NCBI GenBank assembly: GCA_010015805.1
Contig: ML978138.1
Coordinates: forward strand, 62,001 to 126,000
Length of the DNA stretch: 64,000 nucleotides
Direction: 5' to 3'
From: Rhizodiscina lignyota
Lineage: Eukaryota
The position numbers were made by a program, and so were the translations under genes. The notes beneath the pieces are model-generated. The model saw nothing but the letters and a program-made list of their open reading frames with translations, made no database searches and was not told where the DNA came from. This document shows, piece after piece, positions 7,953 to 64,000 of the stretch (position 1 is the stretch's first letter; each line of letters begins with the position of its first letter).

Positions 7953-8276
7953 GTTGAGTGTATGGTAAATAGACAAGGAAGGACGCACAGATTTCTGTTC
8001 AGAACGACGTCCTGCACATCTTCCACTGCGCTCTTCAATCAGCTAGCCATTGAACAATATGAAATGCAAAGCTGCCGCTGTCGAATGTTTGTCAATAGAG
8101 ACCAGTCTTTCAAGTAACTCTCAGTGTTGGTCTCTAGCTCCAAACCATCCGTTAATCCCGCTGGAAGTTCGAACATATTTATCGGTCATTGGGTTGAAGT
8201 GTCCCCGCCGTCAAAAAGAAGAAATCAACCCGTTGTATGAGACCTTGACTCCAAATGATGACAAGATCAGGCTTCA

Positions 8277-8295
8277 CAGCGTGGCGCTTCGACGC
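8277..8295 (+). repeat. Left terminal inverted repeat CAGCGTGGCGCTTCGACGC
   Basis: 18/19 match to the reverse complement of 11705-11723; starts with CAG as hAT ends commonly do. Confidence 0.9.
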
Positions 8296-9615: not shown

Positions 9616-9679
9616 AAAGAACTAGCTCTAATATTTTACTATATAAATTTATATAGTAAAATATTAGAGCTAGTTCTTT
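9616..9679. repeat. Perfect 64-bp palindrome inside the transposon
   Basis: AAAGAACTAGCTCTAATATTTTACTATATAAA is followed directly by its exact reverse complement. Confidence 0.95.
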
Positions 9680-11704: not shown

Positions 11705-11723
11705 GCGTCGGAGCGCCACGCTG
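11705..11723 (-). repeat. Right terminal inverted repeat (reverse complement CAGCGTGGCGCTCCGACGC)
   Basis: Inverted match to 8277-8295. Confidence 0.9.
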
Positions 11724-11727
11724 ACTC

Positions 11728-13151: not shown

Positions 13152-13682
13152 CCATCTCGAAGGGCGCCGGGCGGTGTGCGATACGCTCGGAGAGGTCAGA
13201 GGAGACATTTCTGACTTGGTTTAATACCTAGTCTTCGAAGGAGTTTGCGGTATTGCTTTATGTCAGAGGGTCTTAGAGCGCCTTTGTCGTATATGTAGAT
13301 CACCGCTCCCTACATAGAGATTCCTTCAATCAACTCTCTTAAAAATCGGTTTTGCCACTTTCTCAGGATAGTGTGTGGAATGGAAGACTCGAAAAGTTAG
13401 GCCAAAAACATCATAATCTGCCTTTTGAAGCGTTACATCGCCTGCCTGCTCCGTGATTTGAACTTCTGGCATGATATCAAATTAGTACTTCTTTACCACT
13501 AGGATACAGCGTCCGCTGCAAATCCAGCACCTTTTGTCCAGTGCCACTAATATCAGAGCAGAGGCCAAATACGGGCCATTCATTCCTCTCATACAAAAGA
13601 TACAGCTAAGAGGCCAAATCGAATAGTGGGTACGGAGGTTCGAAAGAGCGTCCCAATGCCACAATATGTCAGCCACACAACG

Positions 13683-26219: not shown

Positions 26220-28340
26220 ATGTTGTGTGACACATGCAAACGGATCCCTTACGACTTTTTCATCCAACGCGGCTCTTTCGAGCATGGAACGCTGGGAGCC
26301 ATCAAGGAGTCCGCCGAAGCTGGCTGCGGTTTCTGCGGACTCATTAATGACTCCTTCTACCTTCAGATGTGCCGAGGTGCGGTTAGGGAAATAGCATATC
26401 GGACTGTCAATGAAAACGTTACCCTCTATACTGATGGATCCGTGCGTAACGGGACACAACAACTCCAATTAATATATCAAGACGACCTTGGCCCTCATAA
26501 CGGTTCGTCTCTGCACTATGAAGTCGTGGTTGGCAGCAAAGGCGAGTATCGCTGATATCACTTCGTGGAGATGGCAACGCTAGCTAAACATTAAGCAGGG
26601 TATAAGCGGTCACCGCTGCCTGTACCTATGTGGGATTTCCTGCTGGACGTTGCCGAATCTTGGGAGCGAAATTGCCGAGAGAATCATGAAGAGTGTAAAC
26701 GGGACTCGGGTACTACGAAACCGTCCTTACCTAGTCGACTCATCCAATTCGACATCGAACAGGATGACAGTATCCCAAAGCTCGTCTCCACCTCTGAGCT
26801 CGAACAAGACGAGATTAAATATGTGACTTTGAGTCACAGATGGGGCCAGCCGGACTCCATGTCCAGTACAACAGTGTCCAACATCCAAACTCGCTTATCA
26901 GAAATAAGGGACCTACCATTGACGTTTCGACAAGCCGTTTCCATAGCGAGGAAGCTGAAAATAGCGTACCTTTGGATCGATTCTATCTGCATCATACAGG
27001 ATGATCCTTCCGACAAGAGCCGAGAGATCGCAAGGATGGCGAATATTTACAGCAACTCTTTCTGCAACATCGTTGCGTCCACTGCATCAGATCCGACTGA
27101 GGGCTGCTACAACCCAGAGAAAGCACAAAGCGTCGCCGGACACATTCTAGAGTTTCCACGCCAGAACGAGGTGTTCACTCGTAGAGTCTTCTTCGTGCGA
27201 GCGGACCGAGCTGCGGAAGAGCTATCAACAGGCATCGAGAGCGGGGTGCTCCATAGTCGAGGCTGGTTGGTCCAAGAACGTCACCTTCCGAGGCGCGCCG
27301 TTCTCTTCACGCCGCAATGTGTAATGTGGGAATGCCAGAAGTCAAGGATAATCAGAGAGTACCCGGACTCGGAAAGAGTCTTTGCAACGATGGAAAGAGT
27401 TACACAGCAAGAGTCGAGGCACGAGTCCTCTGCAGCTTCGAATTTTTGGAAGATTATGAACTCACCGAACGGCCAGCGAGCTATTTACTGGGAATGGCTG
27501 AAACTGGCTGCGGAGTACTCAGGGAAGCGGCTTACTGTGGCTAGTGACAAGCTTCCGGCGATCGGCGGCCTTGCCAGCAGTATGCAAGAACTCACTGGCG
27601 ATGAGTACGTTGCTGGTCTGTGGAGGCGAGATTTAGTCCGGTCGCTCTGCTGGATGCAACCTATTAAGCAACAACTGGACCATCTGCCAGGTTGCGAAGT
27701 GAATACCGACCGAGGCTGGGAGATGACCACACCGTATCGAGCACCGAGTTGGTCGTGGGCCAACCTCGATCTTGTAGTAACATATCCCGAGTTCGACGAG
27801 TTCGGCGAGTTCATGAGCAAGCTTGAGACCGCGGCCTCTCCGGAAATCCTCGAGGTCACCGCCGAAAGTGCCACGGCCGACAAATTCGGCCAAGTTTCTT
27901 CAGCATCGATCAGACTCAAAGCATTTACCGTAGTCGTGAATCCGTTCAGACCTCTTGAAGGCAGTGTTATTGTATTACCGATAGAGAGCCCGGTATATCA
28001 GCAGGAGGGCCTGAAGCGTGTGCGAATCTACAATCGATATGGCCAGCCCATAGCTAAACTTGTCCTGGAGCGGCAGAATTGGACGCTCGGAATCGTGCCA
28101 GACAAGCATAGCAACATGAGTATAAAATGCGTACTCTTATGGAACTTTGACGACAAACATGTCAATGTCCTGGACGACAACAACCTGACATGGTCATGCA
28201 AGCTTATCGGTCTCGCGTTGAGGCCAGTGCAAGAGGAACCGAAAAAGTATGAGAGAATTGGTATGATGTTTTGGCGTCTGGAAGAGGGAGCCCAGTTGTT
28301 TGAAGATGAAGGGGTGGAAGAAGAGCTGACAATCATTTGA
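26220..28340 (+). CDS. HET-domain protein; GC-AG intron 26542-26598
   Basis: MLCDTC..CGFC N-terminus, LPSRLI, YVTLSHRWG, YLWIDSICIIQDD, SRGWLVQER, DKLPAIGGLA and APSWSWA motifs. Confidence 0.93.
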
Positions 28341-28824: not shown

Positions 28825-30215
28825 TTAGGCTGATTTGGCAAGCTCCACCGCCTTCTTCGCAGCGTCACCGAAACCAGATTCCGTATGCAGGCCCAGATTT
28901 GCCTTTTCGACCTGTTGGCGGAAGTAAGTATAAACTTAATCAACGCAAGTTCACCTTTACGGCGGTAGTGCTAGACTCACAAGCTTCAGCCCTTCTTCGG
29001 AGTTAGTCCCTTGCAGTCGAACTACCACCGGAACACGAAGCGAGCCCAACTCCTTCGCGGCACCGATGATTGACTCTGCAATCATATCGCATCGGGTGAT
29101 ACCTGAAACATGAATGAGTTTTTATTAGCATGAGAAGTGTGAGATCCTCACTTACCTCCGTAGATATTGACGAGAATTGTTTTCACTCGCTCATCTCTCA
29201 GAATGATCTCAAATGCTTTCATCATTGTCTCCTTTGTTGCTTGGCCACCAGCATCAAGGAAGTTAGCACTCGCACCCCCGGAGTGTGCGATTGCGTCGTT
29301 GGTCGCCATTGCTAGGCCAGCACCGTTCACCACATTCCCAATATTACCATCCATCCTGACGTACACTAGTCCATACTTCTCGGCCTCAAGCTCTTCGCTC
29401 ACTTCATGCTCAACATCGCGGAGGGCGAAAAGATCCTGCTGGCGCTTCTCTGCTGCATTGTCAAAAGAGAACTTAGCGTCGAGACATGTGAATGTTGAGT
29501 CGGAAGAGCGCACAAGCGGATTAATTTCAAGGAGAGTTGCGTCTTTGCTAACAAACAGGCTGTGCATGCGGCTGAGAATTTGTTCGAGGTTCTTGGTTTC
29601 TGCCACTGATGTTCGAAGTGCTCGAGAGATTTCCGAAATAAGTTCTGCCGTGATCCCTTGCGTGAGATTGAAGTGGAATGTCAACAGTTTCTCGGGGCTT
29701 TCCTTTGCCATTGTTTCGATATCAACGCCGCCACTTTTAGAAATGATAATTGCCGGTTTGTACTGCTCGCGGTCGATCGTCATCGCAAGGTACCACTCGT
29801 CGTGGTATTTGATTGTCTCGACGACGTAGAGCTTGTCCACCTTGAGTCCCTTGCTCGGGGTTTGCTTCGTCTTCAATCGATGGCCGAGCATCTTACTGGC
29901 TATCTCCTTTCCGGCCTCAGGAGACTCGACCATTTGGATCCCTCCCTGCAAACCGCTGTCGAAGGTGCCTTTGCCCCGACCACCCCTCAAGATCTGAGAT
30001 TTGACAACGCATCTTCCGCCGAGTTCTTCAATTATTGCACGCACCTCATCCGGGGATTGTGCAACTTTCCCTCGTGGTACTGGAACGCCAAACTGCTTCA
30101 GCAAATCTTGAGACTGATATTCGTGAATGCTCAATTGCCGTATTTGTTGCTTTGAAATTAGGCATCCCGTATGATCACTTCTCAAGAGCCTCAGAGATAT
30201 GTTCTTGCAAGCCAT
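28825..30215 (-). CDS. LSC2: Succinyl-CoA ligase beta-subunit-like protein (divergent paralog); exons 30215-29156, 29102-28981, 28911-28825
   Basis: [68 protein letters not shown] and VVRLQGTN motifs; canonical introns. Confidence 0.93.
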
Positions 30216-30571
30216 TCTCAAAGTACTCTTCTTCTTTACGTTTCTGGGCCTCTGAAGACGGTTTACAAGGCCGAAGACTTTGAAATCCTACCAAAAGATG
30301 AGAGGGAAATTTGGTTGCAAGCAACAATAGAACTCGGGCATGACACCGCACAGAACAACATCCGATGATGACCTTCGTAGCCATGATGATATCTTACCTT
30401 CTTTCATCAACAATGACTCCATGATAGGCGACTTCAATGTAGGTCGGAGAGCATTAAAGATTTCTGTGCCCGAAAGAATTCGGCTATTAACCCCCTGACG
30501 CTCAGGCGTATCCGATTGCGGATGTGGATGATAGGGAGGCCGCGGCCTTTTTAAGGAGCCGCTCTACCCAG

Positions 30572-30586
30572 CCGACGTGTTCTCGG
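30572..30586. promoter_or_regulatory. Candidate Zn2Cys6 site CCG-N9-CGG (also at 33581-33595 and 40264-40278)
   Basis: The same everted CGG spacing occurs in all three divergent promoters of the cluster. Confidence 0.35.
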
Positions 30587-31112
30587 CGTCCACTGTTCAC
30601 ACTACCCACACGAGTTATATTCCAGTTCTGCAAAATTCCATTTGGTGCTCTTACAATTTACAGAAATTATCAGCTTTGCATTATATGGCCCCGCTGTCCG
30701 TCACCCTTTAAAATATGCATTCATGACGCATATGTTTCGCGTTCGACGCGTCAAAAAATTCCAAACGATGACCTAAGAATCCATCCACCAATTTGACGAC
30801 CAAATTCACCTTGTTTTGAGGCCATCAGTAATATCAGTTAGCCAACATAAGCGATAATATGGCCCGAAAATCCTTCACGTTTGAAGCCGGAAACATACCG
30901 TCCCTCATTTCAGCAGTTCCGGGTCATCGGCTTCCGTTATTCCTTTTTCAAATGGGATCTGTATCCCGTCAGTAGAATCCCTCCTCTTCTCGAGTCCTTC
31001 GTGATTGGAATTCTTTCGTATCCTCTTTACCACGTGATCTACTGTGGAAGTCGTAATATCTCCAATATTGTCAAGTTCACTATCTCCTTGAGGACTCAGT
31101 ATACTCAACAAA

Positions 31113-32153
31113 ATGGCGACAGGCTCGAGTTGGAAGATGGCTCAGGAGAATATGGTCGAAGTTTCCATTCCTGAGGCAAAGAAGCTCGCACAAACTGCTC
31201 TCCAAGCAGTAGGCTACACCGAGTACGATGCCAACGCCATCGGCAGCCATGTTATGGATGCTCAGACGCGAGGATACGGCCCAACTGGCCTGGCTAGAAT
31301 ACTCACCATTGCCGAGCGGGTCGGCCCCAAACCGATTGGCAGCGCCGATATGATTATCACACGAGAGACTGTCTCATCGGCGCAGCTCGACGCCAAGGGT
31401 GCTATCGGCTATCTTGCTTCATACCGCGCGACAGAAATGGCCATCAAGAAAGCAAAGGCAGGTGGGATAGGCATCGTTGGAGTGAGCAACACTTTCTACG
31501 CCGGCATGCTGTCCTACTATGCGGAGATGTGTACGAGACAAGACCTGGTTGCTATGATTGCAGGCAGCGCGGCGCCTTGGGTCGCACCACATGGAAGCTC
31601 TACACCTCGTTTTGGGACGAATCCGCTCTGTATCGCATTTCCGTCGGGGAGCAAGCAACCGATCATTTGGGATATTGGGACCTCGAAGATCATCCACGCA
31701 CAAGTGAAGCTTGCGCAACTAATGGGCGAGGAATTACCGGAAGAGACGGCCTATGATGAGGAAGGCGAGGTTACGAAGGACCCGTTTAAAGCGATGCAGG
31801 GAGCGATGGCAGTATGGGGAGGCCATAAAGGCAGTGGACTGGCAGTAGCAATCCAGTTGATGGGTGCACTTGCAGGCGCTCCAGCGCATACGCACGAATC
31901 CGGGGATTGGGGGTTGCTCGTCATTGTCATGGACCCGGAGATGTTCAGGCCGATCGATGACTTCAAGAAGGAGGTCGATTCGTACTCAGAGACGATCAGG
32001 AGCAGCAAGCCATTGAAGGGCCAAGGTCCCGTTCGAATGCCATTCGATCGGAGCTATCAAATTCGCGAGCAAATTAGGGAAGCTGGGTCAGTGCAAGTGG
32101 AATCGTCCGTTATCGAGGGGTTGCACAAGTTTATAGAGAAAGGCAAGAAATAG
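31113..32153 (+). CDS. Ldh_2-family (type-2 malate/L-lactate/sulfolactate dehydrogenase, DpkA/AllD/ComC-like) NAD(P) oxidoreductase, intronless
   Basis: AIKKAKAGGIGIVGV, FGTNPLCIAFP, WDIGTS, GGHKGSGLA and VRMP motifs. Confidence 0.9.
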   Translation: MATGSSWKMAQENMVEVSIPEAKKLAQTALQAVGYTEYDANAIGSHVMDAQTRGYGPTGLARILTIAERVGPKPIGSADMIITRETVSSAQLDAKGAIGYLASYRATEMAIKKAKAGGIGIVGVSNTFYAGMLSYYAEMCTRQDLVAMIAGSAAPWVAPHGSSTPRFGTNPLCIAFPSGSKQPIIWDIGTSKIIHAQVKLAQLMGEELPEETAYDEEGEVTKDPFKAMQGAMAVWGGHKGSGLAVAIQLMGALAGAPAHTHESGDWGLLVIVMDPEMFRPIDDFKKEVDSYSETIRSSKPLKGQGPVRMPFDRSYQIREQIREAGSVQVESSVIEGLHKFIEKGKK

Positions 32154-32380
32154 AAGGAAGCTCTGTCTGTGTTTTAATGTTCCTTGAACATTCGACTTCG
32201 AACTCAGTCTATTTGTGATGCGTGATCCCTCGGCTGACCCTCAATAGTCCTATCAACTGCGCTCTGAGCTGCTTTCTCACTCTCTAAATCGCCTGTTAGA
32301 GTGGGCCATTGAGAGCAATAGGAGACCCAGGTGAAGGCTTGTCTCACATATGAACTCCGACAATTATGAAGATTGGCAAG

Positions 32381-33433
32381 TTACTTTTTCTCGGGGAACT
32401 TCTCTGCCCATTCTTCATCTCCTCCAATCCACCGATATATCACCTTTGAATCCATTCCTGCACAACGTGGATCTTTTCCCGCCTCCACGTACGAGTTCCA
32501 GGTGTGCCGTCCGACACATAGCTTGGCCCCGACCCTATCGCACGCATCTATCGCCAGGCCGATATCCTTCTTCACATACTCGATCTTGAAACCAGGCTTA
32601 TACCCCCTCGATGCGGGAGCTTCGGGGCTCAATCCAGGAACTGGATTTGCCCTCTCCTGGTTCCGATTACAGCCAGTCGATACCTTGAGAATGTTCTGCA
32701 GAATCCTGGGATCCATGCCTGACTTGATAGCAAAGTTGAACATTTCCGCGTTCAAAAGGGTCATCGACGAACTGAGATAGTTGTTGGCGAATTTAGCCGT
32801 CAATCCTAATGCTGGACCGCCGCAGGTGAAGACATTGTGGCCCATCGTTGCTATCACAGCTTTCATGACTGACACGTTTGGATCTTCGTCTGTGGTGCCG
32901 AGCATGAATGTTATTGTGCCTTTAGCAGCGCCTGCAGTGCCTCCAGATACAGGAGTGTCATAGAAAAAGGCTTTGGGATGGCGAGCTTTAGTTTGCTCAC
33001 CGACCTCAAGAGAGGTGGCCGTGTCGATGGTGCTGCTGTCACAAAGGATCTTGCCGCTCAGATCTTTGGCGGCCAGCACGCCATCCTTCTCGTCCAGATA
33101 GACTGCACGAACGTGTTTGCCTTCGGGGACGATGGAAACGACCAAATCCTACTCTTGCATATTTAGTCACCTGAAATAATGGGTTCCCGCAGACTGAGGA
33201 GTACGTACGCTTTTCTCGGCCACCTCCCTCGAGCTACCACAAGGGTCGAGCTTGGCTACCGCACCTGACTCTTTCAAGCCTCTCTGTATTGCATCTGACG
33301 AAACATCGTAGAAGTGCACTGTTGTCGTGCTCGGAAGCTTGCTCACGAGGTTTGAAAACATGGGAAATCCCATATTCCCAAGGCCGATGAAGCCAATGTT
33401 CGAGGGTGGTTGGGCATCTGTTTCGACTGGCAT
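32381..33433 (-). CDS. Beta-hydroxyacid dehydrogenase (3-hydroxyisobutyrate/tartronate-semialdehyde/GHB reductase family); intron 33149-33208
   Basis: IGFIGLGNMG, DSSTID, DTPVSGG, catalytic AKFANN and GF..KD motifs; in-frame GTACGT..TAG intron. Confidence 0.92.
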
Positions 33434-33747
33434 GTTGATTATAACTGTGCTTCAATTACGATTTTTAGATCTTAATGTCAGAGTGGAAAATCAAAGTTCA
33501 AATTAATCAATTTAAACACAGAGATTATGGGAATCTCGTGACCCCTTATTACCCCGACCATATGAAGGTTTGCCAGATATCCGTCCTATCCTCGGACCCT
33601 CCCACTCCGTGCGCATGCTCATCTACGTGAAAGGCAATATTTCACAGTGTGTTTCCAGAAAGCTTCATTATCAATATTTTCAGATCTGAATCTTGCACAA
33701 AACTCGACAGTTATCTATTTTAGCGTCTAACCACCAGGGCATCAGCT

Positions 33748-34716
33748 ATGGCCAGTTCAGGGAACTCTCCACCGCGTTTACCACCACCCTCTCCCAATCA
33801 AGTCTACGTAAAGATGGCAGCATTGAACGGAGGGTTTATAACACTACCTGAGAGGAATTTCGTGACAAACGCTGATCCAAAATGGGCTACAACGACACCG
33901 TCGATGTGCTTTTTAATCGAACATCCCACAGGATCTGGCAAACCAGATCGAATCGTTTTCGACTTGGGCATCAAACGAGACCTGACCAAATACCTGCCTG
34001 CGACGCGCAAACACATCACGGAACGACAGCCGGTCTATTCTACACCTGATGCAAGAGCTAGTCTTCTGGCTGGAGGCTTTGATCCTGCCAAAGATATCGA
34101 CTACGTGTGCCTAAGTCACGTTCACTGGGACCACGTCGGGGAACCACTCGACTATCCCAATTCAAAGTTCATCGTTGGTTCAGGCACTCTTTACATTCTC
34201 GAAAATGGCGCGCCCAACTATCCTCCTGAGAGGATAATTGAGGAGGGCGTTCTGCCGCCTGACCGAACAGTCGAACTCCCTCCAACACCAGGATCTGAGA
34301 GAAAGCATTTTGCTCACTCTGGAAAGTCGAATCATCAATGGCAATCCCTCTCTACACTTCCGAATGTCGTCGATTACTTTGGTGACGGGAGTGTGTATGT
34401 TGTCGATGCTCCTGGCCATATACACGGACACGTGAACGCCCTTCTTCGTGTTGGACCGGAGAAGTGGGTATATCTTGGTGGCGACTGCTGTCACGACCGA
34501 AGGATTATGACCGGCGAGAGAGGGATCGCAGAGTACGATGACGGACACGGTAAATTGAAAAGCGTTCATGCCGAGCTACCGATAGCAAGGAACACCATCC
34601 AGAACATCCAGAAGCTTATTGAAGTGAACGGAGACACTGTTGAATGGGTAATTGCTCATGATACGAAATGGGCGTGTGAGAACCAAGCTCGGTTCCTGCC
34701 AGGCTGGATGTACTAA
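33748..34716 (+). CDS. Metallo-beta-lactamase-fold hydrolase, AHL-lactonase (AiiA/AttM)-like
   Basis: FDLG, SHVHWDH (HxHxDH), APGHIHGH, GGDCCH and AHD metal-ligand motifs. Confidence 0.9.
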   Translation: MASSGNSPPRLPPPSPNQVYVKMAALNGGFITLPERNFVTNADPKWATTTPSMCFLIEHPTGSGKPDRIVFDLGIKRDLTKYLPATRKHITERQPVYSTPDARASLLAGGFDPAKDIDYVCLSHVHWDHVGEPLDYPNSKFIVGSGTLYILENGAPNYPPERIIEEGVLPPDRTVELPPTPGSERKHFAHSGKSNHQWQSLSTLPNVVDYFGDGSVYVVDAPGHIHGHVNALLRVGPEKWVYLGGDCCHDRRIMTGERGIAEYDDGHGKLKSVHAELPIARNTIQNIQKLIEVNGDTVEWVIAHDTKWACENQARFLPGWMY

Positions 34717-35414
34717 TGATAGCCGAATCAAGGACAAATTCGAAGGGCAAAGTGTCGTATCCAATCTCACTTTAGAATGATTCATGACCTGAATCTGGAC
34801 CAGTAATTGACCACAATCCAGTTTTATTGACTAAGTATGTCTCCACCTCTATCCTTCTCTTCTGATGCTTTCCGCTCTCATCCGTTTCGGCGATATCTAT
34901 TTCACTATCAGTGCCTTTTCGCTGATGGCGCCGTGCATTTGGACGCTTGCTTTGAGGCTCTTCGCTGGACGTTGATATTATTTTACAGCGCTATTTCCTA
35001 TATGGTTGTGAGCTTGAAAACTTCAGTACTGTTGTTAACGTTGCCGCGTGGAACAATACCTCAACTCTTAGCTCTTTTCTTGTATCAGGTATCTGATCAT
35101 TGCCGCGCGGCGTTTTGATACCCATGTTACTCCGTACCTCCAAATTATCGCCGTCCTATGACAGCGGCTATGGCTGGACCACCGGATCTCGAACATGCTG
35201 CCCAACCACCCACGATCCCCACACATGGGATGAGAGAACAGGCACATCTGTACGCGCGCGTTCATGAGACCAAAGGGAGATGAGGACCGTCGTCTCCCGC
35301 CCGGAAAGCCAGTCTCCGCGGTGTCTGCCTCCAACCGCGAGAACAGGTGTCGGTGGTTCTCCGCATTGTTGATCACTCTCGGGGGGTTTGAATAGAGCTG
35401 TTCTCGATTCGGAT

Positions 35415-35438
35415 GATGCGGGGATGCGGGGATGCGGG
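35415..35438 (+). repeat. (GATGCGGG)x3 tandem containing two SYGGRG (CreA-type) sites
   Basis: GCGGGG at 35418 and 35426, about 580 bp upstream of the MFS start. The repeat is certain; its regulatory role is inferred. Confidence 0.45.
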
Positions 35439-36008
35439 TTATGTCGCGTAATAGATCCTCCCTAGTATGCTAATAGGTTTAGTGTTGGCCATTTTCATCT
35501 TTATTTACCATATAACGAAAGATTACTAACTACTTTTAGTGATGATATGCAAGCCTGACTCGCACCCCCCTTTAATTAAGTCTGGGCTCTCACAGCCAAG
35601 GGCTTGACCATATCCTTTCGCCTTTCTCCGACCACCCTCGTTGGGAGGATTAAGCTTACAGGTCTGGTCCAAGGAATGGCTTTCGCTCCGACACGCCCGT
35701 TCAGGGTGCAGTCTTCCATGTTCCCATGTCGTGAAGACCCACCGTTATGCCGTTGTTGGATGGCCTGATGGGCAAGGACTTGCATCCCCAGTTTTGCGTA
35801 CCCCAGTCTATCTCCCCAGGATTCCCTTCCCCAGTTTATATTCCCCCGGATCATTCGTTTCCTTCTGCGGGCTGTTTGCATACATCCCGAGTTCTCGGTG
35901 CCTCTAGCTCTCTTTTAGCTGTGTCACCTCGTCCTAATCTTTCCTCTTGCATCAGTTCACGTCGTCAAGTTGTTTTAACGATAACTCGATCAATCTCAAT
36001 CTTTCACA

Positions 36009-37725
36009 ATGGCTGATACACCACCGAGCAAAGATTACGCAGTAGATCATGTCGAGAACGCTGATAAGCGTGGCTCACTTGAGCAAGAAATCCACATGGC
36101 CGAGAAACGCGATGCCGAAGCGATCGAAACTAAATATCACATCCCCATGAGAGAGGCCTTAGAGTCTCATCTCGATGAGGATGCGGCGAGAGTCAGAAGA
36201 ATTCTGTGGAAAGTCGATTTGCGACTTGTTCCAATGTTGTCCCTCTTGTACATGTGGGCATTCATCGACAGATCGAACTTGGGAAATGTACGGAACCTCC
36301 GGAAATCAAATCGAGCACACAGTGACTATGATCTGACTGCGAGCACAGGCAAACATCGCTGGAATGAGTGAAGATCTCAAGACCAACGTAGGCAATCGCT
36401 ACTCGGTCCTCGCTATGATCTTCTTCATCGGGTACTGCCTTATCGACATTCCAGCCGCATTCATCGCCCGCAAAGTCGGCCCTGCTCTATGGATTGGTGT
36501 GGTCGGCACCCTATGGGGAATCATCACGCTTGCTCAAGGGTTTGTCAAGACCTGGGGCCAGCTTGCCGTATGTCGTGCTCTCCTTGGATTCCTTGAGGGC
36601 GGCTTGGTACCTGCCGCTATGTACCTGTTGTCTGTTTGGTATCCGCGTTACAACATCCACGTGCGCATCGCCGGTTTCTATGTCATTGGAAATTTTTCTA
36701 GTGGTCTGTCCGGTTTACTTGCCTATGGGATCGAGAAGATGGCTGGCGATTCTGGGTATAATGGATGGAGCTGGATTTTCATCATCGTAAGTCGCGCCCC
36801 GCGCCGTTATCAAAGGACTTTCTAATCATTTTGAATGCAGGAGGGCATTGTCAGCACAGTCGTCGGCATCGCCTCCTTCTTCATCCTCGTTGATTTCCCC
36901 GAAAAAGCTGCGGTCAAAAACTCTCTCGGTCTGCCTGGTTTCCTTACTCCAGAAGAAGCCGCCATTATCCTGGCTCGTATTGAGCACGATCGCGGTGACG
37001 CCGTAGAAGACAAGATGAACTTCAGGATCGCGATGAAGCATTTCCGAGACTGGAAGCTGTGGGAGTTCAGCGCCTACCTCACACTCAACAACACCGCTCT
37101 CTACGCTTTTTCGTACTTCCTGCCAGTCATCTTGAAGGACGGCTTCGGCTATTCCACCGGAAAAGCCCAGGTGATGACCTTCCCACCATATTGTGTCGGT
37201 GCCTGCTGGATCATGGCAGTCTCTTTCATCGGGGACCATTACAAGATCCGCGGGCCAATTCTAGCCTTTAATTGCCTTCTTTACATAATCGGGGTCTCCA
37301 TGACCGGTTATGCAACGAATGTTCATACTCGGTACGCCGGAGTGTTCCTTGGTGTTATAGGCATTATTGGCAACGTACCTACCCAGTGGGCCTACCAGCA
37401 CAACAATATGGTTGGGCAAAATAAGAAAGCGCTCACCATGGCCTGCATGGTCATGGGAGGTGCTTTCGGTGGCATCATCTCCGGCAACATTTTCCAAGCA
37501 AAGGATGCGCCGGGCTATCGGTCGGGACTCTGGATCTGCATTGCTTTCCAGGTAAGGCGATAATGAAGTACTCTTCCTTGCAATGCTCTTTCTCTAACAA
37601 ATATACAGATCGTGTACTTCTTCCTCGTTTGCAAGAACTTTGTGATCTTTTACATTCAAAACAAGCGAGCAGATCGTGGTGAGATCATAATCGAAGGTCA
37701 ACCAGGTTTCAGACACACATACTAG
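36009..37725 (+). CDS. MFS transporter, anion:cation symporter (Dal5/Tna1-like) family; introns 36288-36348, 36787-36840, 37552-37608
   Basis: KVDLRLVP, FIDRSNLGNA, RALLGFLEGG, WY, GWSWIFIIEG, DFPEKA and the terminal GFRHTY*; all three introns keep the frame. Confidence 0.93.
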
Positions 37726-37851
37726 GCTGGACCTCATATAGGCAAGGGCAGGGACGCATGGAAGCCAATTCCTCAAGAGATCGCGTCTTGCGAAAGACAA
37801 GAAAGCTTAGTCTATATAGTTTTGAACATATGACGCTTCCGTAATCTGTCG

Positions 37852-39948
37852 CTACGGAAGCATGTTACCAAACGTGTCTTCTGGGCTCCAGTTCAGGATG
37901 CCATTGCCTCCTTCTCCGAATGCAAAGTCATTTTCAATCTGTGAAAACAAGAATTGGTTCGCCTCTTCGGTTGACCATGACCACGGAGAATCCGACGCCA
38001 ATGCTGCGTCCAGCACATTACCAGTGGGATGAGATTGGGGTATTATGTTATGATTTTGTTCCGCTAGCGAGGCGCCGCCAGGCGTCGGTGGGTTCGTGTC
38101 CTTGCCTTCATCCTGCATCCTCAGTTGAGCTGCAGTCGAGCGGTCAAGGTACTGGAAGAACAGCTGCAGAACCCCATTCTTGACCTCCCAGGTCTTCTGT
38201 AACTCTTGCAGGCCCAAGAGACAGAGCTTCGCTCGGTGCTCTGCAATTGCCCGAGCTGGACCACTTGATCGCCGCAGACTGATCGTGTGAATGCAGAGAG
38301 TGTTGAAGAGGTTGGTTATGACGTGAATCTGTGCATGTCGTAGTTTTCCCTCAGGGAGCATATCCTCGATGATCCGAGAGTTCCGGATAGCTGCTTGAAG
38401 AGCTATGTTTCCATCACCATCTTGCTTTTCTCTTTCGTTGCTGATGTAGTCAGATCTATAGAGGAGTATGAGCAGATTGTTGTACGCTAAGTGCAGCATG
38501 TTCGTATGGAAGCCTGGCTGTTCATCGAAATCGGTAGGTAGTACCATCATTTTCGGCAATGATTGTTTCCACTCGATCAGCTCGCCTTGAATTAGTGATC
38601 TCTGAGACGCAGTGAGGCTCCTGCCGGGCAGGTATCCATAATGGATGATGTCACCCAGAATCTTTGACAGTCCAACCATGCTTGTCTGGTATAGAATACC
38701 CGAATACTTATCTTGATGTGAAGTCCACGCTGGGAATGCCGCCTGGAAGTCATATGTGTCCAACACCTCGATATCACAATCTTCGTCTCTTATTCTGTTC
38801 GGCAAGCCCAAAGCCGCAGCACATTGCCGTTCGCGGACATATATGGACCACCAGAGCCGCTTCTTTAGCTTCGCCGTCCACGCTTCGGGTGTCCACGCTT
38901 CGGGCGTGCCTACAGACCGATGTAGTGCTTTGGATTGAGCTAAACTGATAGCTGCGCTTAACCAATGTCGCGTATCCTTGTAGAATAAAGGTCCCTCTCT
39001 CCAGAAACTCATCAAGAACAATGCTCGGATGACCGTGAGATTGTCGTCTTCAATATCCGCGTCATATATGTCTTTGGCACGATGGTAGAAGAGGAATTTA
39101 GCTTGATGTCGATTGCCCTGATCGAGCAGCCGTAGATCATCATCATCACAATGAATGACACCGATGAATAGTATTGCATTCAGAAGCAAGGGCGATAACA
39201 GTCCTTTGAGAAGCAGAGTCCTAGTATTTGGCTCATCCACGATCGCAAAGCAGGGATGGAACCATTGAAAATAGTGGCGCACTAATCTTCTAACGACTTC
39301 ATCTTCTGGGAATGAGAACACTCCTTCCTCCTGCAGAGAGTTGATCCTTGCTTCTCTGCGGCCCGCTTCCCATGCTGGAATGGAGTTGTCGTTTTTGACG
39401 GCGTTTGGGACAGAGTGGCGAAGTCGCAAGCTCTCTGGAGAAGGAGGTCCTGGTTGCTGTGATGCCGAAGTTCGATCTTCAAGAGCTTCGACATATCTGA
39501 TTGACGTAGACTCCCCGAGGAAGACGGCACCATCATCTTCTGGCCTAGAGCTGTCAAGGGGTGCTTTAGGAGACTGTGCCGTAGCTGTATCGTCTGAAGG
39601 AACTTCGCTGCTTCTACTGTTCTGTGACAATGCTGGTAGCGCGTGTGAACTCGCCGCTCCGGAGTCAGCTCTCAAGTGGGTGAGCACATTGGCAGCATCG
39701 TGGTCGGCAGTCTGCTGGAGATCACTGTCTCTCGAAATGGAGGCTCGCGATTGACGAGGATGCCTTCCACGACGTGACTCCCGTATTTCACACGAGATGC
39801 CGGCGGCAGCGCAGTTGTCGCAAGGCAAAGACTCAATGACATTGCATTTGACGCGCCTAGCATTGCAAGCATGACATGCCTGTCTCGCGCGTTTTCGTGG
39901 TGGCTGTCCATCTGAGCGAGTCATCGTAGAGGGACTTTCCCGTCTCAT
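37852..39948 (-). CDS. Zn(II)2Cys6 transcription factor with fungal-specific TF domain
   Basis: ACHACNARRVKC..PCDNC..C binuclear cluster, YFQWFHP and KKRLWWSIYVRER. Confidence 0.95.
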   Translation of the reverse strand: MRRESPSTMTRSDGQPPRKRARQACHACNARRVKCNVIESLPCDNCAAAGISCEIRESRRGRHPRQSRASISRDSDLQQTADHDAANVLTHLRADSGAASSHALPALSQNSRSSEVPSDDTATAQSPKAPLDSSRPEDDGAVFLGESTSIRYVEALEDRTSASQQPGPPSPESLRLRHSVPNAVKNDNSIPAWEAGRREARINSLQEEGVFSFPEDEVVRRLVRHYFQWFHPCFAIVDEPNTRTLLLKGLLSPLLLNAILFIGVIHCDDDDLRLLDQGNRHQAKFLFYHRAKDIYDADIEDDNLTVIRALFLMSFWREGPLFYKDTRHWLSAAISLAQSKALHRSVGTPEAWTPEAWTAKLKKRLWWSIYVRERQCAAALGLPNRIRDEDCDIEVLDTYDFQAAFPAWTSHQDKYSGILYQTSMVGLSKILGDIIHYGYLPGRSLTASQRSLIQGELIEWKQSLPKMMVLPTDFDEQPGFHTNMLHLAYNNLLILLYRSDYISNEREKQDGDGNIALQAAIRNSRIIEDMLPEGKLRHAQIHVITNLFNTLCIHTISLRRSSGPARAIAEHRAKLCLLGLQELQKTWEVKNGVLQLFFQYLDRSTAAQLRMQDEGKDTNPPTPGGASLAEQNHNIIPQSHPTGNVLDAALASDSPWSWSTEEANQFLFSQIENDFAFGEGGNGILNWSPEDTFGNMLP

Positions 39949-40457
39949 TTTGTGGTCTTCTTCGTCTGTACGCTAGGCAATTGGTACGAGAGCTCTCGAG
40001 CAATGTGTCCTGCTGGCGACCGAGTGGAGTTGTATAGGCGAGGTTTGAGTTTGCCGAAAGCCGACTTCAAAGGATGGAGAGCCGGTGACGGAAGCGCTCT
40101 CCTGCGGATGGCGCACTCATCGCTGTGCATCAATTCAACAACATCTGCATTCTCCTCAATCTTTCCGTTCCCATCCGCAGGCTCATCTCTTCATTCCTAT
40201 TTGCTTCTAAACAATTATGTTACCCCTCCTCCGAAAGTATGAGTCCGGAGTCCAGTTCTGAGTCCGCCCTCCGAGCGGCGAGCACTTTGCATTTGAGATT
40301 TGGTATAGCCGAGTCATCTACTAATGAGAGACCATGGTGATACCTGATGGAAGTGATGACGGTGTGTAGCTACAACAACGGATAGAGTTAAAAATTATTT
40401 GGAGCGGACATCTCAGCGCCCTCTCTCACTCCTTCATGAAATTATATTCGCTACATC

Positions 40458-41586
40458 ATGACTGCGCGGCATATTCGTATAATTGGCAATATACTCACGA
40501 AATCGCTCAGTGGACACTCAAGGCGAACTTTCTCTTCTACAAGGCCGTCAATTGCTTCGTATGAAGAAGATACACTCCCGAACCTACGGATAGACCAAAA
40601 CACAAGGGTCATATATCAAGGATTCACGGGCAAGGCAGTAAGTTCTCAGAGCCTCAATTGAGTGTCGAACACTATTCTGACGCGCGGCAGGCAACAAAAA
40701 ATGCTAAGGATACCATAGAATATGGAACTAATATTGTCGGTGGAGTGTCGCCTGGAAAGGGTGGACAAGAACATCTCGGATTACCAGTATTTAATACTGT
40801 ACGAGAGGTGAGACCATCGTCTCCCGAAACCACTTCAGTGCTGTGAACTAGGCTAATCCACCCCCTCAGGCAATGGAGCAAGTCAAACCCCAAGCCAGCT
40901 CCGTCTTCGTCCCCGCCCAATTCGCCGCAAAAGCCATCATCGAGTCCATCGAAGCAGAAGTCCCACTGGTCGTCGCAGTAGCAGAGCACATTCCGGTGCA
41001 AGACATGCTACGAGTCCAAGAAGTCCTGCGAACGCAAAGTAGAACACGTCTTGTTGGGCCAAACTGCCCTGGCATCATCGCGCCTGAGCAGTGCCGAATT
41101 GGCATCATGCCGTACAAACAATACGCAAAAGGTGTCGTCGGAATCGTTTCCAAGAGCGGTACGCTTAGCTACGAAGCCGTTGGCGCGACTACTAAAGCAG
41201 GGCTTGGTCAGAGTATCGTTGTTGGCATGGGCGGTGACATGTTGCCGGGAACTACTCTTGCTGACGGACTGAAGCTGTTCTTCGACCATGCGGATACCAA
41301 GGGTATTATCGTCATCGGCGAGATTGGCGGCGAGGCCGAACTGAACGCTGCCGAGGTGATCAGGGAGTACAAACGCACCACTCCGAACCCAAAGCCCATC
41401 ATTGCGATGGTAGCAGGGAGGACAGCGCCGGAAGGTAAGACCATGGGCCATGCGGGTGCACTTTTGTCTCCAAGAGATGCTTCCGCGGAAGCAAAAGCTA
41501 AAGCACTCGAGGCTGCAGGAGCAGTCGTTGTACCGCATCCAGGTTTGATGGGCAGTGAGATGAAGAGACTCATGGCTGTAGATTGA
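40458..41586 (+). CDS. LSC1: Succinyl-CoA ligase alpha-subunit-like protein (divergent paralog); introns 40638-40690, 40808-40869
   Basis: IYQGFTGK, YGTNIVGGVSPGK, LVGPNCPGII, SKSGTLSYE, IGEIGG and the phospho-His motif MGHAGA; presequence-like N-terminus. Confidence 0.94.
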
Positions 41587-41611
41587 ACTGTAATGCATAA
41601 TCTGCTGCCGC

Positions 41612-43126
41612 TCACTCTTGCCTCGCCTTCTTTTCATTAATATCTACAAGCCCACTTCCTGCTGGTATTTGACCTTTCAGCCGCTCTATCTTCCCCATCC
41701 TCTCCATCACATACGTGTCTTCGTCTCTTCCCGGCCAGAGAATCTTTCGCCTCCACACCGCGAGCACATGATGAACGAGCACAAAGATGTACATCGCCAC
41801 AAGGAAGATGGTCATGATGGACCCCACCCAAAGTATGCCCTGCGAATCAAGCTCTCTCCCAATCGTGATCGTTGCGATAGTAAAACCGACATTCGGAAAG
41901 ATAAACGCCCACCAGTTGAGCGAGAAATGGATCGCTTTCTCCTTTGTAATGAAAGGCCATGAAACCAAAAGATTTGCAATGACCGAGATGCAGAAGAACC
42001 AAAACGCCAGGCTCCAGATGAACACAGACACGACCGTAGCGAGTGTCAGCAGCACCATTCTCGCAGCTTCGCCCTCGGAGCCTCCAAAATACGACTGCTT
42101 CCCAGTAGGCCAAGCATTTGCGAGCCCAATGATAGCAAGGGACGTAAAGCTGGGCGGTCCGACGGCGATGAACATGCCCGGCCTTGACTGCGGCGACGGA
42201 AGACCATAATTGATCATGCGCCGCAAATAACTCGCGTACATGAGCATGCTAACCATCATGCCCAAGCCCTGCGACAGCAAGCCGCATATGATCATGGGGA
42301 TCTTCTTTTCCATGGGTTGAAAGGGTGCTCCGATAGCCGCAATTGTGCCTGAAAGCATGACAGGAAAGATCGGTAGGTCCCACGCGGGCGTCATGTCTTG
42401 AATCTTTAGCCGCGGAGATGTGAAGAGGAGAACGTATTGCCCCACGCTGTTGCAGAATGTGATGGCGAAGTAGATCCAGAATAGCACACGATAAACCACG
42501 ACCAGCCACTCGCCTGCAGCAGGAACGCCGTAGCGCCCAATGCAGCCTATGATGCTTGCCAAGGCCAGGTGGCTCGTGGCGAAGAAGAGGGACTCAGTCG
42601 GGTGCGTGAGGCTTGATTTGAGACGTCCAGGATAGCGAATAAAACGGTAAGTGATAGCGGCAGTGATGAGACTGAAAATGACGAGGTCGAAGATATAAAC
42701 GATTTTGCCGATAACTTCGAGGCCGTCAAAGCTATGGGGTTGCGTGTCTGGGTTTAAGAGTAGAGCGAGGCCGCCAGTAGCCATCGGGAATGTGTAATTC
42801 GCCTGGAAGAAGAGTTAGCCATAGATCAATCAGATAGAAGAAATAAAGCCTATGCTTGAAGCACAAGATTATAATCTACATTCTGATCCTATCATGGATT
42901 GATATCCTTGATAGCATTGACTTGACTCGTTATTTTCTTGCCAAATTGATATTGAACGTTGAAATTAAAGAAAACACCATACCCATGTAAAGTGCTGCAA
43001 TCGATCAATCCATCTACGAGGCTCTTTGATCTGGAAGGCCCGAGCTTGCTCTTCAATGTCACCACGCGTCGGTGGCATCGCCTCTGCCCCTATTTTGCCA
43101 GCGTCGTCATCGTGATGCTGCTCCAT
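41612..43126 (-). CDS. mae1: Mae1-like malic acid/C4-dicarboxylate transporter (TDT/SLAC1 family); intron 42803-42982
   Basis: RLQHFTW/ANYTFPMATGG, HPTESLF, PAWDLPIFP, RPGMFIAVGPPSFT and WWAFIFPNVG motifs. Confidence 0.92.
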
Positions 43127-43915: not shown

Positions 43916-45774
43916 TCACCGAATCGTCCTAGCAGCAGCCATGCCATCAACCTTCTTGCTCACTCCCGCAGCTGCGCTTGAGCTGCCCGAGCCAGCCTTT
44001 TTCTCAAACACCTTCCAGAACTTCAAGCTCTCGTCCGCTGCAGCAGTCGCAAGGGTCTGACCATCGGGGCTGAGACAGGAGTGCAGCACTCTGCTCTCAT
44101 GTGCCGGGATCTCAATGTTCTTCACCAAGCTCGGGTAGCTCCAGATGCTGATGCTGTTGTCTGGGAAACCGCTCGTCGACGCAAGCTCCTTGTATTGGGT
44201 GCTCCACCTCAGCGATGTGACTTGTGAGCCGGTATCGATGGAGTTGACCCTGGCGCCTGACGTGCTGTTCCAGAAGTGGATGTGCCTGTCGTGGCTGCCA
44301 CCTCCGGTTGCGAGGAGGTTGAGCTGCCATGGGCACCAAGCGAGAGCCTTGACGGCGGCATTGTGGTTTGTCTTCTGGAACTTTGGAGTGTTGAGTGCAC
44401 GGGAGTCCCAGATGCAGACGAGGTTGTCGTTGCCTCCTGATGCGAGCTGGGCACCATCCTGACGCCATTCTAGTCCACATACTTCGCCAGTGTGAGCGGT
44501 GAGAGTGTTTGTGTGGTGCTGTGCTATGCGGACGTCGTGAGAGTGGAGTGCGCCAGTGCGGGAGCCGGTTGTGAGTGTATGCTTGTTCCAGCCTGCCGGT
44601 AGAAGTGAGTAACTGTTATTGTTGGAGATGGACAAGGAGAAGACGTACTCATGGCGCTGACTCGGCTGTCGTGGCCGAACATGCTTCTTAGCTTCGTACC
44701 CTCTTCAACATCCCAGATCTGAACCTCGCCAGAGCCCAAGCCTACAGACACATATGCACCATCACCACTCCACTTAAGAGAAGAGATGTATGTCTCTGGG
44801 ATGTCCTCGATTAACGGCGAGACAGTACCTGAATCTGCCGACCAGACGTAGACACTCTGACCAAGACCGATTGCAACCTGATTGTTACAGCTCCAGTCCA
44901 ACAAGTTGAGGTAGTAGTCGTCAACAATATTGGGAGCATCGAGGACGCGCTCTGGGCTGGTGAGGATCCGACGCCTCAGCTGTGCTGACAGTGCATTGGC
45001 GGGCTTGAGAGGACGGTTGTACTGTGATCGAAGGTCAATTGGCTTCGAAGATTCGGGCGGTGCGGGCTTGAATGCCAATATCCTGGTGTTCAAGCTGACG
45101 CCACATGCATTCGCGATAGAAGACTCGTAAGCTACAGTATTAGGCGAAGGCTTGCTGTAATTCTTGTCGTCATCCTCGTCGTCGGCAGTCCGATCATTGA
45201 GACTGAGTCCTTCCAAGCTCAGCGTGGCAGTCTCATCATCAGCACCGCGGCCACCAATGGTCTCGAATGCACCGGCGGTGGCAGCGCTTGAAGAAAGCAC
45301 TGCCGAACCATCCTGTGCAGACCTGGGGCGTCGCTTCGGCGTCGTGGTATCGAGCTTTGCGGTGCCTGCGTTAGAGATTGCTTCGCTTGCGGAGCGGTTA
45401 GGAATGAAGCGGTCAGCAGCATTGTACGCGATGCGCACGCTCGACTTGGGCCGCGGTCTGCTAGACTGTGTAGCTGTGCTTACACCGGCCTGAGTCGAGC
45501 GTGGCTTTGATGGGGTGCCTGTGCCGGTGAGTGTCCAATCAGACAGACCTAGTTCAAGCCTTCGTGGCGAATCCCGTGCAATGTTTGACTTGGCAGACTT
45601 GCGGACCCCCGAACGAGAGAGAGCTTGAGCAAACGTAGGAGTGGAGTGAATGGAGGGAGGAGTAGGTTGGTAGTTGGAGGTTTTCGGGGAGGGTGTGAGG
45701 GGCATTCGACCGCCGGCAGTCTTGGTGGTGAAGAGGCGGCCCTTGGTGGGCGTGCAAACGTCGACGGTTGCCAT
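43916..45774 (-). CDS. CDC20: APC/C activator Cdc20/Slp1 (WD40); intron 44593-44648
   Basis: C-box DRFIPNR, RILAF, PERVLDAP..DDYYLNLLDWS, WD repeats and C-terminal IR tail. Confidence 0.97.
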
Positions 45775-46269
45775 TGCTGAACAAGAACAACTGAAAACAA
45801 GTGCAATGGGATATTGTTTTGTATTATGTATGCAGAGCAGAGCAGTTTTGAAGGGATTTTGTGGTTTTGTGGTGAGGAAGAAAAGAGGTTGCAGCAGCGG
45901 GAGAGTCGAGGTTTTATTTACATACAATGGTTGCCAGGTGAACGCACCGCACAGATGAAAACCTCTTTAAAAGCCGACCTCCGGCGCCAACGTCATAGGT
46001 TGGCCATGGCTTCTAATTTCAATTGAAAGTTTGAAACACCGAAAGGGTTTGAACTCGTGTGCTTAATGATCGCTGTGAGATTTAAAGCTGGCTCGACACT
46101 GACGACATAGACAGCCGAAAGCATCGCCGAAAGCTCAATTCAATATGCTTTGGAGCGTATCTATCAAGATTGGACAGTTTGACATTCATAGTCTGTATTA
46201 ACCTCAAAGACTATATACCGTCATGGCTCGTTATCTTAGAGTGTAGAGTTGTACTCTATCTGCAAGTGC

Positions 46270-62610: not shown

Positions 62611-64000
<1,390 letters not shown>

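Follow-up and report, generated by a model that had tools for sequence, protein, structure and literature searches.

A putative composite catabolic gene cluster in Rhizodiscina lignyota with an accessory succinyl-CoA synthetase-like ligase pair

Why would a fungus hold two genes whose products resemble succinyl-CoA synthetase (SCS) subunits on either side of genes for an oxidoreductase, a dehydrogenase, a putative lactonase, a carrier and a regulator? The question is raised by positions 28825-43126 of a 64,000-nucleotide stretch of Rhizodiscina lignyota DNA (contig ML978138.1, positions 62,001 to 126,000; hereafter the window). A first-pass annotation, made from the sequence alone, had recognized here eight contiguous genes, among them three divergent pairs, between a HET and a CDC20 gene, and had proposed a single catabolic cluster built around a dedicated SCS-like ligase. 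A Pfam scan together with our gene models finds each of the eight families at its place and both flanks as described, and the start codons bear out the divergent pairs SCS-beta/Ldh_2, HIBADH/MBL and transcription factor/SCS-alpha (Table 1). The observation is confirmed and its interpretation is partly supported: what the region holds is a composite fungal catabolic cluster that includes an undescribed accessory family of SCS-like ligases. The anatomy of eight contiguous genes with three bidirectional promoters between unrelated flanks speaks for a real metabolic cluster, and we put the chances at even that it is one, composed of a module A, the accessory SCS-like pair and a TDT carrier at the edge. 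On the best reading, module A consists of a lactonase-type hydrolase of the MBL fold, a beta-hydroxyacid dehydrogenase of the HIBADH family and an Ldh_2-family oxidoreductase, here sitting with an MFS importer and a Zn2Cys6 regulator, and module B is the head-to-head SCS-like pair whose halves bracket module A.

Are these genes found together elsewhere? Linkage among fungi was judged from the best 120 matches each for SCS-beta, Ldh_2 and MBL. The same fungi, namely Xylogone, Pseudogymnoascus, Fonsecaea, Exophiala and Cladophialophora, supply the best relatives of both Ldh_2 (70-82% identical) and MBL (64-83%), and among the matches listed ten Ldh_2-MBL homologue pairs share a contig, as judged by identical contig size. 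The locus tags of the two genes lie two apart in Fonsecaea multimorphosa (Z520_03107/03109) and F. erecta (AYL99_08385/08383) and four apart in Hypocenomyce (MMC08_004606/004610). SCS alpha and beta genes in turn adjoin in three metagenomic fungal contigs, L001 (beta 65% and alpha 75% identical to the R. lignyota proteins), L006 (64% and 70-85%) and L008 (50% and 67%), and in the last of these they stand head-to-head as in the window. By the measure of these comparisons, Ldh_2 with MBL and SCS alpha with SCS beta are each conserved as a pair and separately from one another, and in the data examined they are joined only here; the one contig that SCS-beta shares with Ldh_2 or MBL among the matches listed is the window's own. 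The expectation that all eight genes would be conserved as one unit did not hold, since the two sets are separate in the fungal lists, in the metagenome loci and in the bacterial loci described next.

A parallel to module A is found in bacteria. We inspected the surroundings of the nearest bacterial Ldh_2 relatives, 42-50% identical to the fungal protein, in 80 loci. With bacterial queries, a lactonase-type MBL gene was detected near Ldh_2 in 24 of the 80 loci and directly adjoining it in 10 (in Burkholderia, Amycolatopsis and Bryobacterales); HIBADH-family genes occurred in 19, CMD-family genes in 20, and MBL and HIBADH together in 12. Since the background of Lactamase_B matches is about 0.07 per 20 kb (139 matches in the 37.4 Mb of five of those genomes), the occurrence of MBL near Ldh_2 is several-fold above background. 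As in the fungal cluster, the families carboxylate MFS, MBL, HIBADH and Ldh_2 stand together in bacterial operons such as that of Arthrobacter (L034); in Burkholderia (L015) and Bryobacterales (L037) MBL adjoins Ldh_2. We consider it quite probable that Ldh_2, HIBADH and MBL function together. The 37 sequences of the Ldh_2 orthologue group, whose named members are all fungal, form a clade with a support of 0.995 and are separated from a clade of 44 named bacteria (support 0.999), and a recent inter-domain transfer of the gene was rejected on these grounds.

The actinobacterial operon deserves mention in its own right. It recurs at L034:1148-10937, L020:3295-10981, L036:3440-10960 and L038 and contains genes for an MHS-type MFS carrier, a lactonase-type MBL, an SDR, two HIBADH-family and two CMD-family proteins, a GntR/FCD regulator, an SSADH-like ALDH and Ldh_2. 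In Arthrobacter the order is MFS-MBL-SDR-HIBADH-CMD-HIBADH-GntR-CMD-ALDH-Ldh_2, in Amycolatopsis (L020) HIBADH-CMD-MBL-Ldh_2, and one of the CMD-family genes scores just below the PcaC cut-off (153 versus 155.7 bits). The accessible parts of open-access papers and bioRxiv preprints yielded no published function for such an MBL-HIBADH-CMD-Ldh_2 operon.

But does the SCS-like pair belong functionally to module A? In our estimate a functional tie of the pair to Ldh_2, HIBADH and MBL falls somewhat short of an even chance; it is favoured because the layout is nested and the chemistry compatible. The explanation that competes with it best is juxtaposition by chance or rearrangement, in which module A together with the MFS and transcription factor genes would be independent of the SCS pair and interleaved with it, the TDT gene belonging to either or to neither. 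This would agree with the conservation of the two gene sets apart from each other, and with the different company kept by other SCS pairs, which have ferric reductase, Vgb-lyase-like and Ldi-like genes as neighbours in L001, FAD_binding_2 and ALDH genes in L008, and an SDR in Ilyonectria (see below). Then again, the five genes lying exactly between SCS-beta and SCS-alpha, that is Ldh_2, HIBADH, MBL, MFS and the transcription factor, are nested within a pair that elsewhere is adjacent, which looks like cluster assembly and not like random placement. Bidirectional promoters couple SCS-beta to Ldh_2 and the transcription factor to SCS-alpha, the genes are tightly packed between unrelated flanks, and a sequence leading from a lactone by way of a hydroxy-dicarboxylate to a CoA ester is chemically coherent. 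We therefore regard mere juxtaposition as possible yet unlikely.

Several observations nevertheless weigh against a single functional cluster. No SCS-beta homologue among the 119 listed non-self matches lies on a contig of the same size as a listed Ldh_2 or MBL homologue, and neither the 10 kb around the L001 SCS pair nor any of the 13 metagenome loci was found to contain one of the other six genes; the link of the ligase pair to module A thus rests on adjacency in one genome. Across the 80 bacterial Ldh_2 loci no SCS-like gene was detected (E<=1e-8). The bacterial parallel itself appears to be one of families and not of orthologues: fungal queries retrieved HIBADH in 18 of the 80 loci (25-33% identical) and MBL in three (27%), and fungal SCS, MFS, transcription factor and TDT queries each retrieved nothing there. 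Unlike the fungal cluster, the bacterial operons usually add CMD (PcaC-like) and SDR genes and sometimes an SSADH-like ALDH. No 8-10-mer is common to at least three of the five cluster promoters, which also fits a chance juxtaposition. The motif CCG-N9-CGG, present once in each divergent promoter (30572, 33581 and 40264), could be a Zn2Cys6 site; these are three out of the 12 that the 64-kb window contains, found with 48 spacing patterns tried and differing in their inner sequences, and we treat the motif as not significant. The enzymes all score under the cut-off of every named NCBIfam equivalog, SCS-beta possibly excepted. Finally, neither the cluster nor its flanks hold an enzyme for processing a CoA ester (hydratase, lyase or dehydrogenase), and a scan of 29 open reading frames of at least 110 amino acids outside the cluster detected no lyase, hydratase or further metabolic enzyme that would complement the set.

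What can be said of the reactions of module A? The lactonase function of the MBL protein, at first a guess from sequence, is now supported by fold. An AlphaFold model of the protein (pLDDT 88.3) was compared with the PDB by Foldseek, and the top matches are all lactonases, namely 4-pyridoxolactonase, AiiA, AhlX, GcL and AiiB (E values of 1e-14 to 1e-11, the best 1.6e-14, with TM(target) of 0.7-0.8). The HxHxDH motif is formed by H124-H126-D128-H129, and the metal ligands H124, H126, D128, H129, H304 and D305 are invariant in an alignment of 30 sequences. The best NCBIfam match, the AttM lactonase, reaches 54 of the 390 bits required, and the protein stays below every named equivalog. By modelled fold and ligands it therefore falls within the AiiA/AttM/4-pyridoxolactonase group, in no named subfamily. 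A resemblance to the FDB-type xenobiotic lactamase cluster was considered and rejected, as no Fusarium protein is among the best 120 MBL matches.

The Ldh_2 profile PF02615 covers the oxidoreductase over positions 2-332 of 333, which places it in that family. Its top PDB match is L-sulfolactate dehydrogenase (2x06, 2.5e-42), followed by malate-type enzymes (2.5e-31) and DpkA (1wtj, 1.5e-26), and L-sulfolactate dehydrogenase is also the best of the NCBIfam equivalogs, all of which remain far under their cut-offs (183 versus 500 bits). L-sulfolactate dehydrogenase also acts on malate/oxaloacetate and 2-oxoglutarate. Such an affinity would suit a substrate bearing a second anionic group, and is thus in keeping with a TDT carrier and an SCS-like ligase. 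For the HIBADH-family protein the top PDB matches are true 3-hydroxyisobutyrate dehydrogenases (1.3e-33), enzymes that in eukaryotes carry a mitochondrial presequence. Here the Rossmann motif starts from residue 13 and leaves no room for one, and the main exon reaches 168 of the 292 bits required by TIGR01692. A true HIBADH of valine catabolism was rejected for these two reasons, and we assign the protein to the wider beta-hydroxyacid dehydrogenase family. Neither Ldh_2 nor HIBADH nor MBL has a presequence, and the best reading of their N-termini is that all three are cytosolic. R. lignyota possesses a second Ldh_2 protein (P0185, 50% identical) and a second MBL protein of the same type (P0351, 51% identical); they are encoded on different contigs, of 1,995,651 and 4,063,048 bp, respectively, and are thus not clustered together.

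The affinities of Ldh_2 would allow readings other than a lactone pathway. Many of its close homologues carry the JGI annotation delta1-piperideine-2-carboxylate reductase and DpkA is among its PDB matches, so that Ldh_2 might be an imino-acid reductase (delta1-pyrroline- or piperideine-2-carboxylate) and the MBL protein might open a lactam or cyclic amide in the degradation of a cyclic amino-acid derivative. In line with this, a proline-racemase-family gene lies 1.5 kb from Ldh_2 in L028. We nevertheless consider this reading improbable: the JGI names are automatic, DpkA matches far more weakly than the sulfolactate- and malate-type enzymes, the MBL fold matches lactonases, and a proline-racemase neighbour was seen in one of 22 bacterial loci scanned with Pfam. 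The L028 locus, from an actinobacterial metagenome-assembled genome, has the proline-racemase-family gene (12451-13461, minus strand) and a GntR regulator just downstream of the Ldh_2 relative, a context expected for a delta1-pyrroline-2-carboxylate reductase, and substrates within the Ldh_2 group may accordingly differ.

A shade less credible still is an organosulfonate route, one of the three substrate options of the first-pass annotation. It would have C3 sulfonates of the sulfolactate or sulfolactaldehyde type oxidized by a ComC-like Ldh_2 and a YihU/SlcC-like HIBADH enzyme, sulfoacetate or 3-sulfinopropionate activated by the SCS-like ligase, and sulfite exported by an Ssu1-like TDT carrier, and for the joint scheme one can cite the Ldh_2 matches to L-sulfolactate dehydrogenase in both the PDB and NCBIfam, the presence of sulfolactaldehyde reductase among the HIBADH matches in both collections, and the membership of Ssu1 in the TDT family. 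Yet the scores lie far under the equivalog cut-offs for Ldh_2, as given above, and for the HIBADH-family protein (72.5 versus 348 bits), none of the desulfonating enzymes (SuyAB, Xsc, desulfinase) is present in the cluster or flanks, known sulfonate routes make no use of a lactonase, and the Atlas neighbours of the TDT protein are named malic acid transporters. What the sulfonate option retains are the sulfolactate dehydrogenase matches of Ldh_2. The MBL fold favours the other two options, lactone acids and hydroxy-dicarboxylic acids.

The SCS-like proteins carry domains and motifs of their family. In SCS-alpha, which aligns to the mitochondrial alpha subunit of human and pig (PDB, 1.4e-73), the MGHAGA motif with the catalytic histidine in GHAGA is conserved, and the CoA_binding and CoA-ligase domains are present; on NF004230 its last exon by itself reaches 276 of the 336 bits required. 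In SCS-beta, whose top PDB match is the beta subunit of mitochondrial ADP-forming SCS (1.7e-85), the alignment finds the loops VNGAGLAM and N-I-x-G-G-I retained, which presumably line the succinate site. From these alignments the catalytic apparatus of the pair appears to be intact. SCS-beta has a 27-residue extension ahead of LSIHEYQ, where its ATP-grasp domain begins, and the N-terminus of SCS-alpha is rich in arginine and devoid of acidic residues, resembling a mitochondrial targeting sequence. Arg-rich, acid-poor N-terminal extensions are found in no other enzyme of the cluster, and the best reading of them is that both subunits are targeted to mitochondria. N-terminal extensions are also present in 15 of the 118 SCS-beta sequences that fall outside the clade described below.

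In its relatives, however, the pair departs from typical housekeeping orthologues, as had been suspected. The 119 listed non-self matches of SCS-beta are 51-79% identical and scattered over Dothideomycetes, Sordariomycetes, Eurotiomycetes, Leotiomycetes and lichen fungi, with multiple copies per species and as many as nine distinct entries of Fusarium oxysporum among the matches listed. When 57 named full-length relatives, six intermediate sequences and 125 further representatives of 50% clusters are placed in one tree, the fungal SCS-beta family forms a clade with a support of 0.87, which rises to 0.997 when four more representatives are included (70 sequences). The midpoint root divides these 70 from all 118 remaining sequences, among which canonical fungal LSC2 is unlabelled. 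Residues fixed in the family are N294 (C), N306 (M), S316 (P), Q/K325 (G/S) and Y352 (F), where the other 125 sequences have the bracketed residue with 54-91% conservation, and Y352 directly precedes the GG loop. By this phylogeny and distribution the pair belongs to a patchy, multi-copy Pezizomycotina clade, probably an accessory family apart from the housekeeping LSC1/LSC2 group. The metagenome loci L002-L012 contain no clear case of canonical LSC2. Two database entries, P0041 of Ilyonectria sp. (644 amino acids) and P0052 of I. robusta (614 amino acids), have an SDR domain N-terminal to an SCS-beta-like protein; whether they represent a real fusion or merged neighbouring models, these fungi have an SDR gene immediately upstream of their SCS-like one.

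Could the two genes simply be those of the tricarboxylic acid (TCA) cycle enzyme that flank a small catabolic module by chance? The main exon of SCS-beta alone (379 of 422 amino acids) scores 369.6 bits, a fraction under the cut-off of 370 for the NCBIfam ADP-forming SCS beta, and mitochondrial-type N-termini and intact motifs would suit such a role in both subunits; yet this is the least probable of the alternatives and a very improbable one, since a Dothideomycete housekeeping gene should have many close orthologues in its class whereas the best non-self matches are 74-79% identical and the best 120 include four named Dothideomycetes only, mixed with Sordariomycetes and Eurotiomycetes, and since the copy number in F. 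oxysporum, the long branch of the separate clade and its fixed substitutions all argue otherwise, as does Aspergillus niger, where in the accessible part of one study the annotated TCA-cycle SCS alpha and beta genes An17g01670 and An14g00310 are unlinked (PMC6862759).

How would such a ligase serve a lactone pathway? We propose that the MFS carrier would import an anionic lactone or hydroxy acid and that the MBL enzyme would open the ring, a role in agreement with its fold and metal ligands on a substrate that we presume. To judge from their families, Ldh_2 and the HIBADH-family enzyme may oxidize a 2-hydroxy group and a 3-hydroxy or hydroxymethyl group. The C4-C6 dicarboxylate product would then enter the mitochondria, where the SCS-like ligase, given its intact motifs, might convert it to a CoA thioester with ATP, its presumed specificity being for that acid. 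By chemical reasoning, the most likely substrates would be carboxy-gamma-lactones or hydroxy-dicarboxylates, with compounds of the paraconate/itamalate, 2-hydroxyparaconate/itatartarate and 2-hydroxyglutarate-lactone types as examples of the most likely class. Carboxy-gamma-lactones would fit best because 2-(hydroxymethyl)succinate, to which paraconate opens, is an analogue of 3-hydroxyisobutyrate that the HIBADH-family enzyme would accept, because the nearest characterized relative of Ldh_2 acts on 2-hydroxy-dicarboxylates, and because ligases of the SucCD type accept itaconate, a moonlighting activity of SucCD reported in the accessible part of PMC9875883.

A related chemistry is the metabolism of itaconate and 2-hydroxyparaconate by Ustilago (Cyp3/Rdo1) and Pseudomonas (PA0878-0886), which likewise involves a carboxy-gamma-lactone and its ring-opened product itatartarate. 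In the sections of PMC9875883 available, the 2-hydroxyparaconate lactonase PA0880/Rdo is, unlike the MBL protein, a small putative ring-cleaving dioxygenase, the itaconate route uses a CoA transferase, a hydratase and a lyase, none of which is encoded in the R. lignyota cluster, and engineered Pseudomonas failed to assimilate 2-hydroxyparaconate or itatartarate. The tie of the cluster to this metabolism would thus be one of chemical analogy only.

Two further systems offer comparisons. In Agrobacterium the gamma-butyrolactone operon blcABC/attKLM combines the MBL lactonase AttM/BlcC with dehydrogenases leading to succinate. The R. lignyota cluster resembles it in having an MBL lactonase of the AttM/AiiB kind followed by dehydrogenase steps toward a C4-dicarboxylate and differs in having Ldh_2 and HIBADH in place of an iron-dependent alcohol dehydrogenase (iron-ADH) and SSADH, in adding a CoA ligase and two carriers, and in the low score of its lactonase on the AttM model. 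SCS itself (SucCD, LSC1-LSC2, SUCLG1-SUCLA2) has specialized relatives in the malate thiokinase MtkAB, the 3-sulfinopropionate-activating SucCD and the sulfoacetate-CoA ligase SqwKL. With SCS the R. lignyota pair has in common the two-subunit architecture, the GHAGA phosphohistidine and the core loops, and among solved structures the mitochondrial ADP-forming enzyme is its nearest relative; unlike SCS it lies in a separate fungal clade with fixed substitutions beside the conserved loops, and its genes are near each other and near catabolic genes. Malate thiokinase was tried and rejected as an identity of the pair, with 279 versus 604 bits on NF010647 and no HpcH/citrate-lyase-type gene in the cluster or flanks.

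Both carriers can be placed at the level of families. The MFS protein matches the D-galactonate-transporter subfamily TIGR00893 (2.3e-18). For the carrier at the edge, which had been named Mae1/TDT, membership of the TDT/SLAC1 family stands and the Mae1 identity is not distinguished: TIGR00816 (tdt) gives 164 bits against a cut-off of 237, and the name 'C4-dicarboxylate transporter/malic acid transport protein' carried by its Atlas neighbours (score 0.96) is automatic, so that on present sequence comparison the protein is not separable as Mae1 from other TDT members.

The gene models and matches are collected in Table 1. The interval begins with the final base of the SCS-beta stop codon (28825) and ends with the TDT start codon (43126). 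Exon models are 100% identical to the deposited proteins P0001 (422 amino acids), P0121 (346 amino acids) and P0241 (322 amino acids).

Table 1. Genes, promoter regions and flanks of the SCS-like/lactonase cluster (window coordinates; promoter regions are measured from start codons)
Feature	Position	Strand	Gene model or length	Pfam match (position)
HET gene, left flank	26595-28340	+		HET
SCS-beta-like gene, ADP-forming acid-CoA ligase beta	28825..30215	-	422 aa, 3 exons: 30215-29154, 29100-28978, 28908-28825 (boundaries to nearest codon)	ATP-grasp_2 (1.8e-63) + Ligase_CoA (29148-30287)
Divergent promoter region SCS-beta/Ldh_2	30216..31112	.	897 bp	
Ldh_2-family NAD(P)-dependent oxidoreductase	31113..32153	+	346 aa, one exon, no presequence	Ldh_2, E 9.5e-82 (31092-32153)
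Beta-hydroxyacid dehydrogenase, HIBADH family	32381..33433	-	330 aa, 2 exons: 33433-33209, 33148-32381	NAD_binding_2 + NAD_binding_11 (32381-33451)
Divergent promoter region HIBADH/MBL	33434..33747	.	314 bp	
MBL-fold hydrolase, lactonase type	33748..34716	+	322 aa, one exon	Lactamase_B, weak, E 5.9e-5 (33724-34716)
ACS-type (Dal5-like) MFS anion:cation symporter	36009..37725	+	predicted 514 aa, 4 exons: 36009-36287, 36349-36786, 36841-37551, 37609-37725 (predicted splice sites)	MFS_1 (36337-36825)
Zn2Cys6 transcription factor	37852..39948	-	~698 aa, uninterrupted frame from ATG 39948 to stop 37852	Zn_clus (8.3e-6) + Fungal_trans (4.3e-27) (37852-39972)
Divergent promoter region transcription factor/SCS-alpha	39949..40457	.	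509 bp	
SCS-alpha-like gene	40458..41586	+	predicted 337 aa, 3 exons: 40458-40637, 40691-40807, 40870-41586	CoA_binding + Ligase_CoA + Succ_CoA_lig (40565-41586)
TDT/SLAC1-family (Mae1/Ssu1-type) anion transporter	41612..43126	-	predicted 444 aa, 2 exons: 43126-42983, 42802-41612	SLAC1/TDT, E 7.8e-90 (41612-42814)
CDC20/Fizzy WD40 gene, right flank	43916-45966	-		CDC20/Fizzy WD40

Some features of the window beyond the cluster may be recorded here. Two HET-domain (heterokaryon incompatibility) genes lie less than 12 kb apart upstream of the cluster, one at 16147-18480 on the plus strand and the other being the left flank. A 4-kb block at 8001-12000 has a G+C content of 0.32-0.34 compared with about 0.50 elsewhere and resembles a repeat degraded by repeat-induced point mutation (RIP) or a transposon relic; no long open reading frame with a Pfam match was seen in it. 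A sugar-transporter-family MFS gene (60443-61705, minus strand) and a sulfatase gene (62611-63999, plus strand) form a divergent pair at the window's right end; 17 kb off, this pair is regarded as outside the cluster.

What would the locus mean for fungal metabolism? Should the two modules be unrelated, the region would come down to an ordinary uncharacterized catabolic cluster next to an SCS paralogue of accessory kind. A more far-reaching reading, which we hold tentatively and think doubtful as it stands, is that the SCS-like clade is new, gene-linked and mitochondrial, has a new acid specificity, preferring a hydroxy- or branched dicarboxylate over succinate, and was recruited in R. lignyota as the last step of a likewise undescribed lactone pathway whose core, formed by lactonase-type MBL, HIBADH and Ldh_2, is common to fungi and many soil bacteria. 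We found no description of the fungal gene set or of a fungal accessory SCS pair in the accessible parts of open-access papers and bioRxiv preprints. If this reading is true, fungi would own a second, specialized mitochondrial ADP-forming acid-CoA ligase and with it a new entry of organic acids into CoA metabolism, which would be of relevance to itaconate-type and hydroxy-acid biotechnology. The MBL/HIBADH/Ldh_2 trio of fungi, Actinobacteria, Proteobacteria and Acidobacteria would then mark a widespread catabolic route, and the bacterial operons would offer an easy genetic handle on its substrate.

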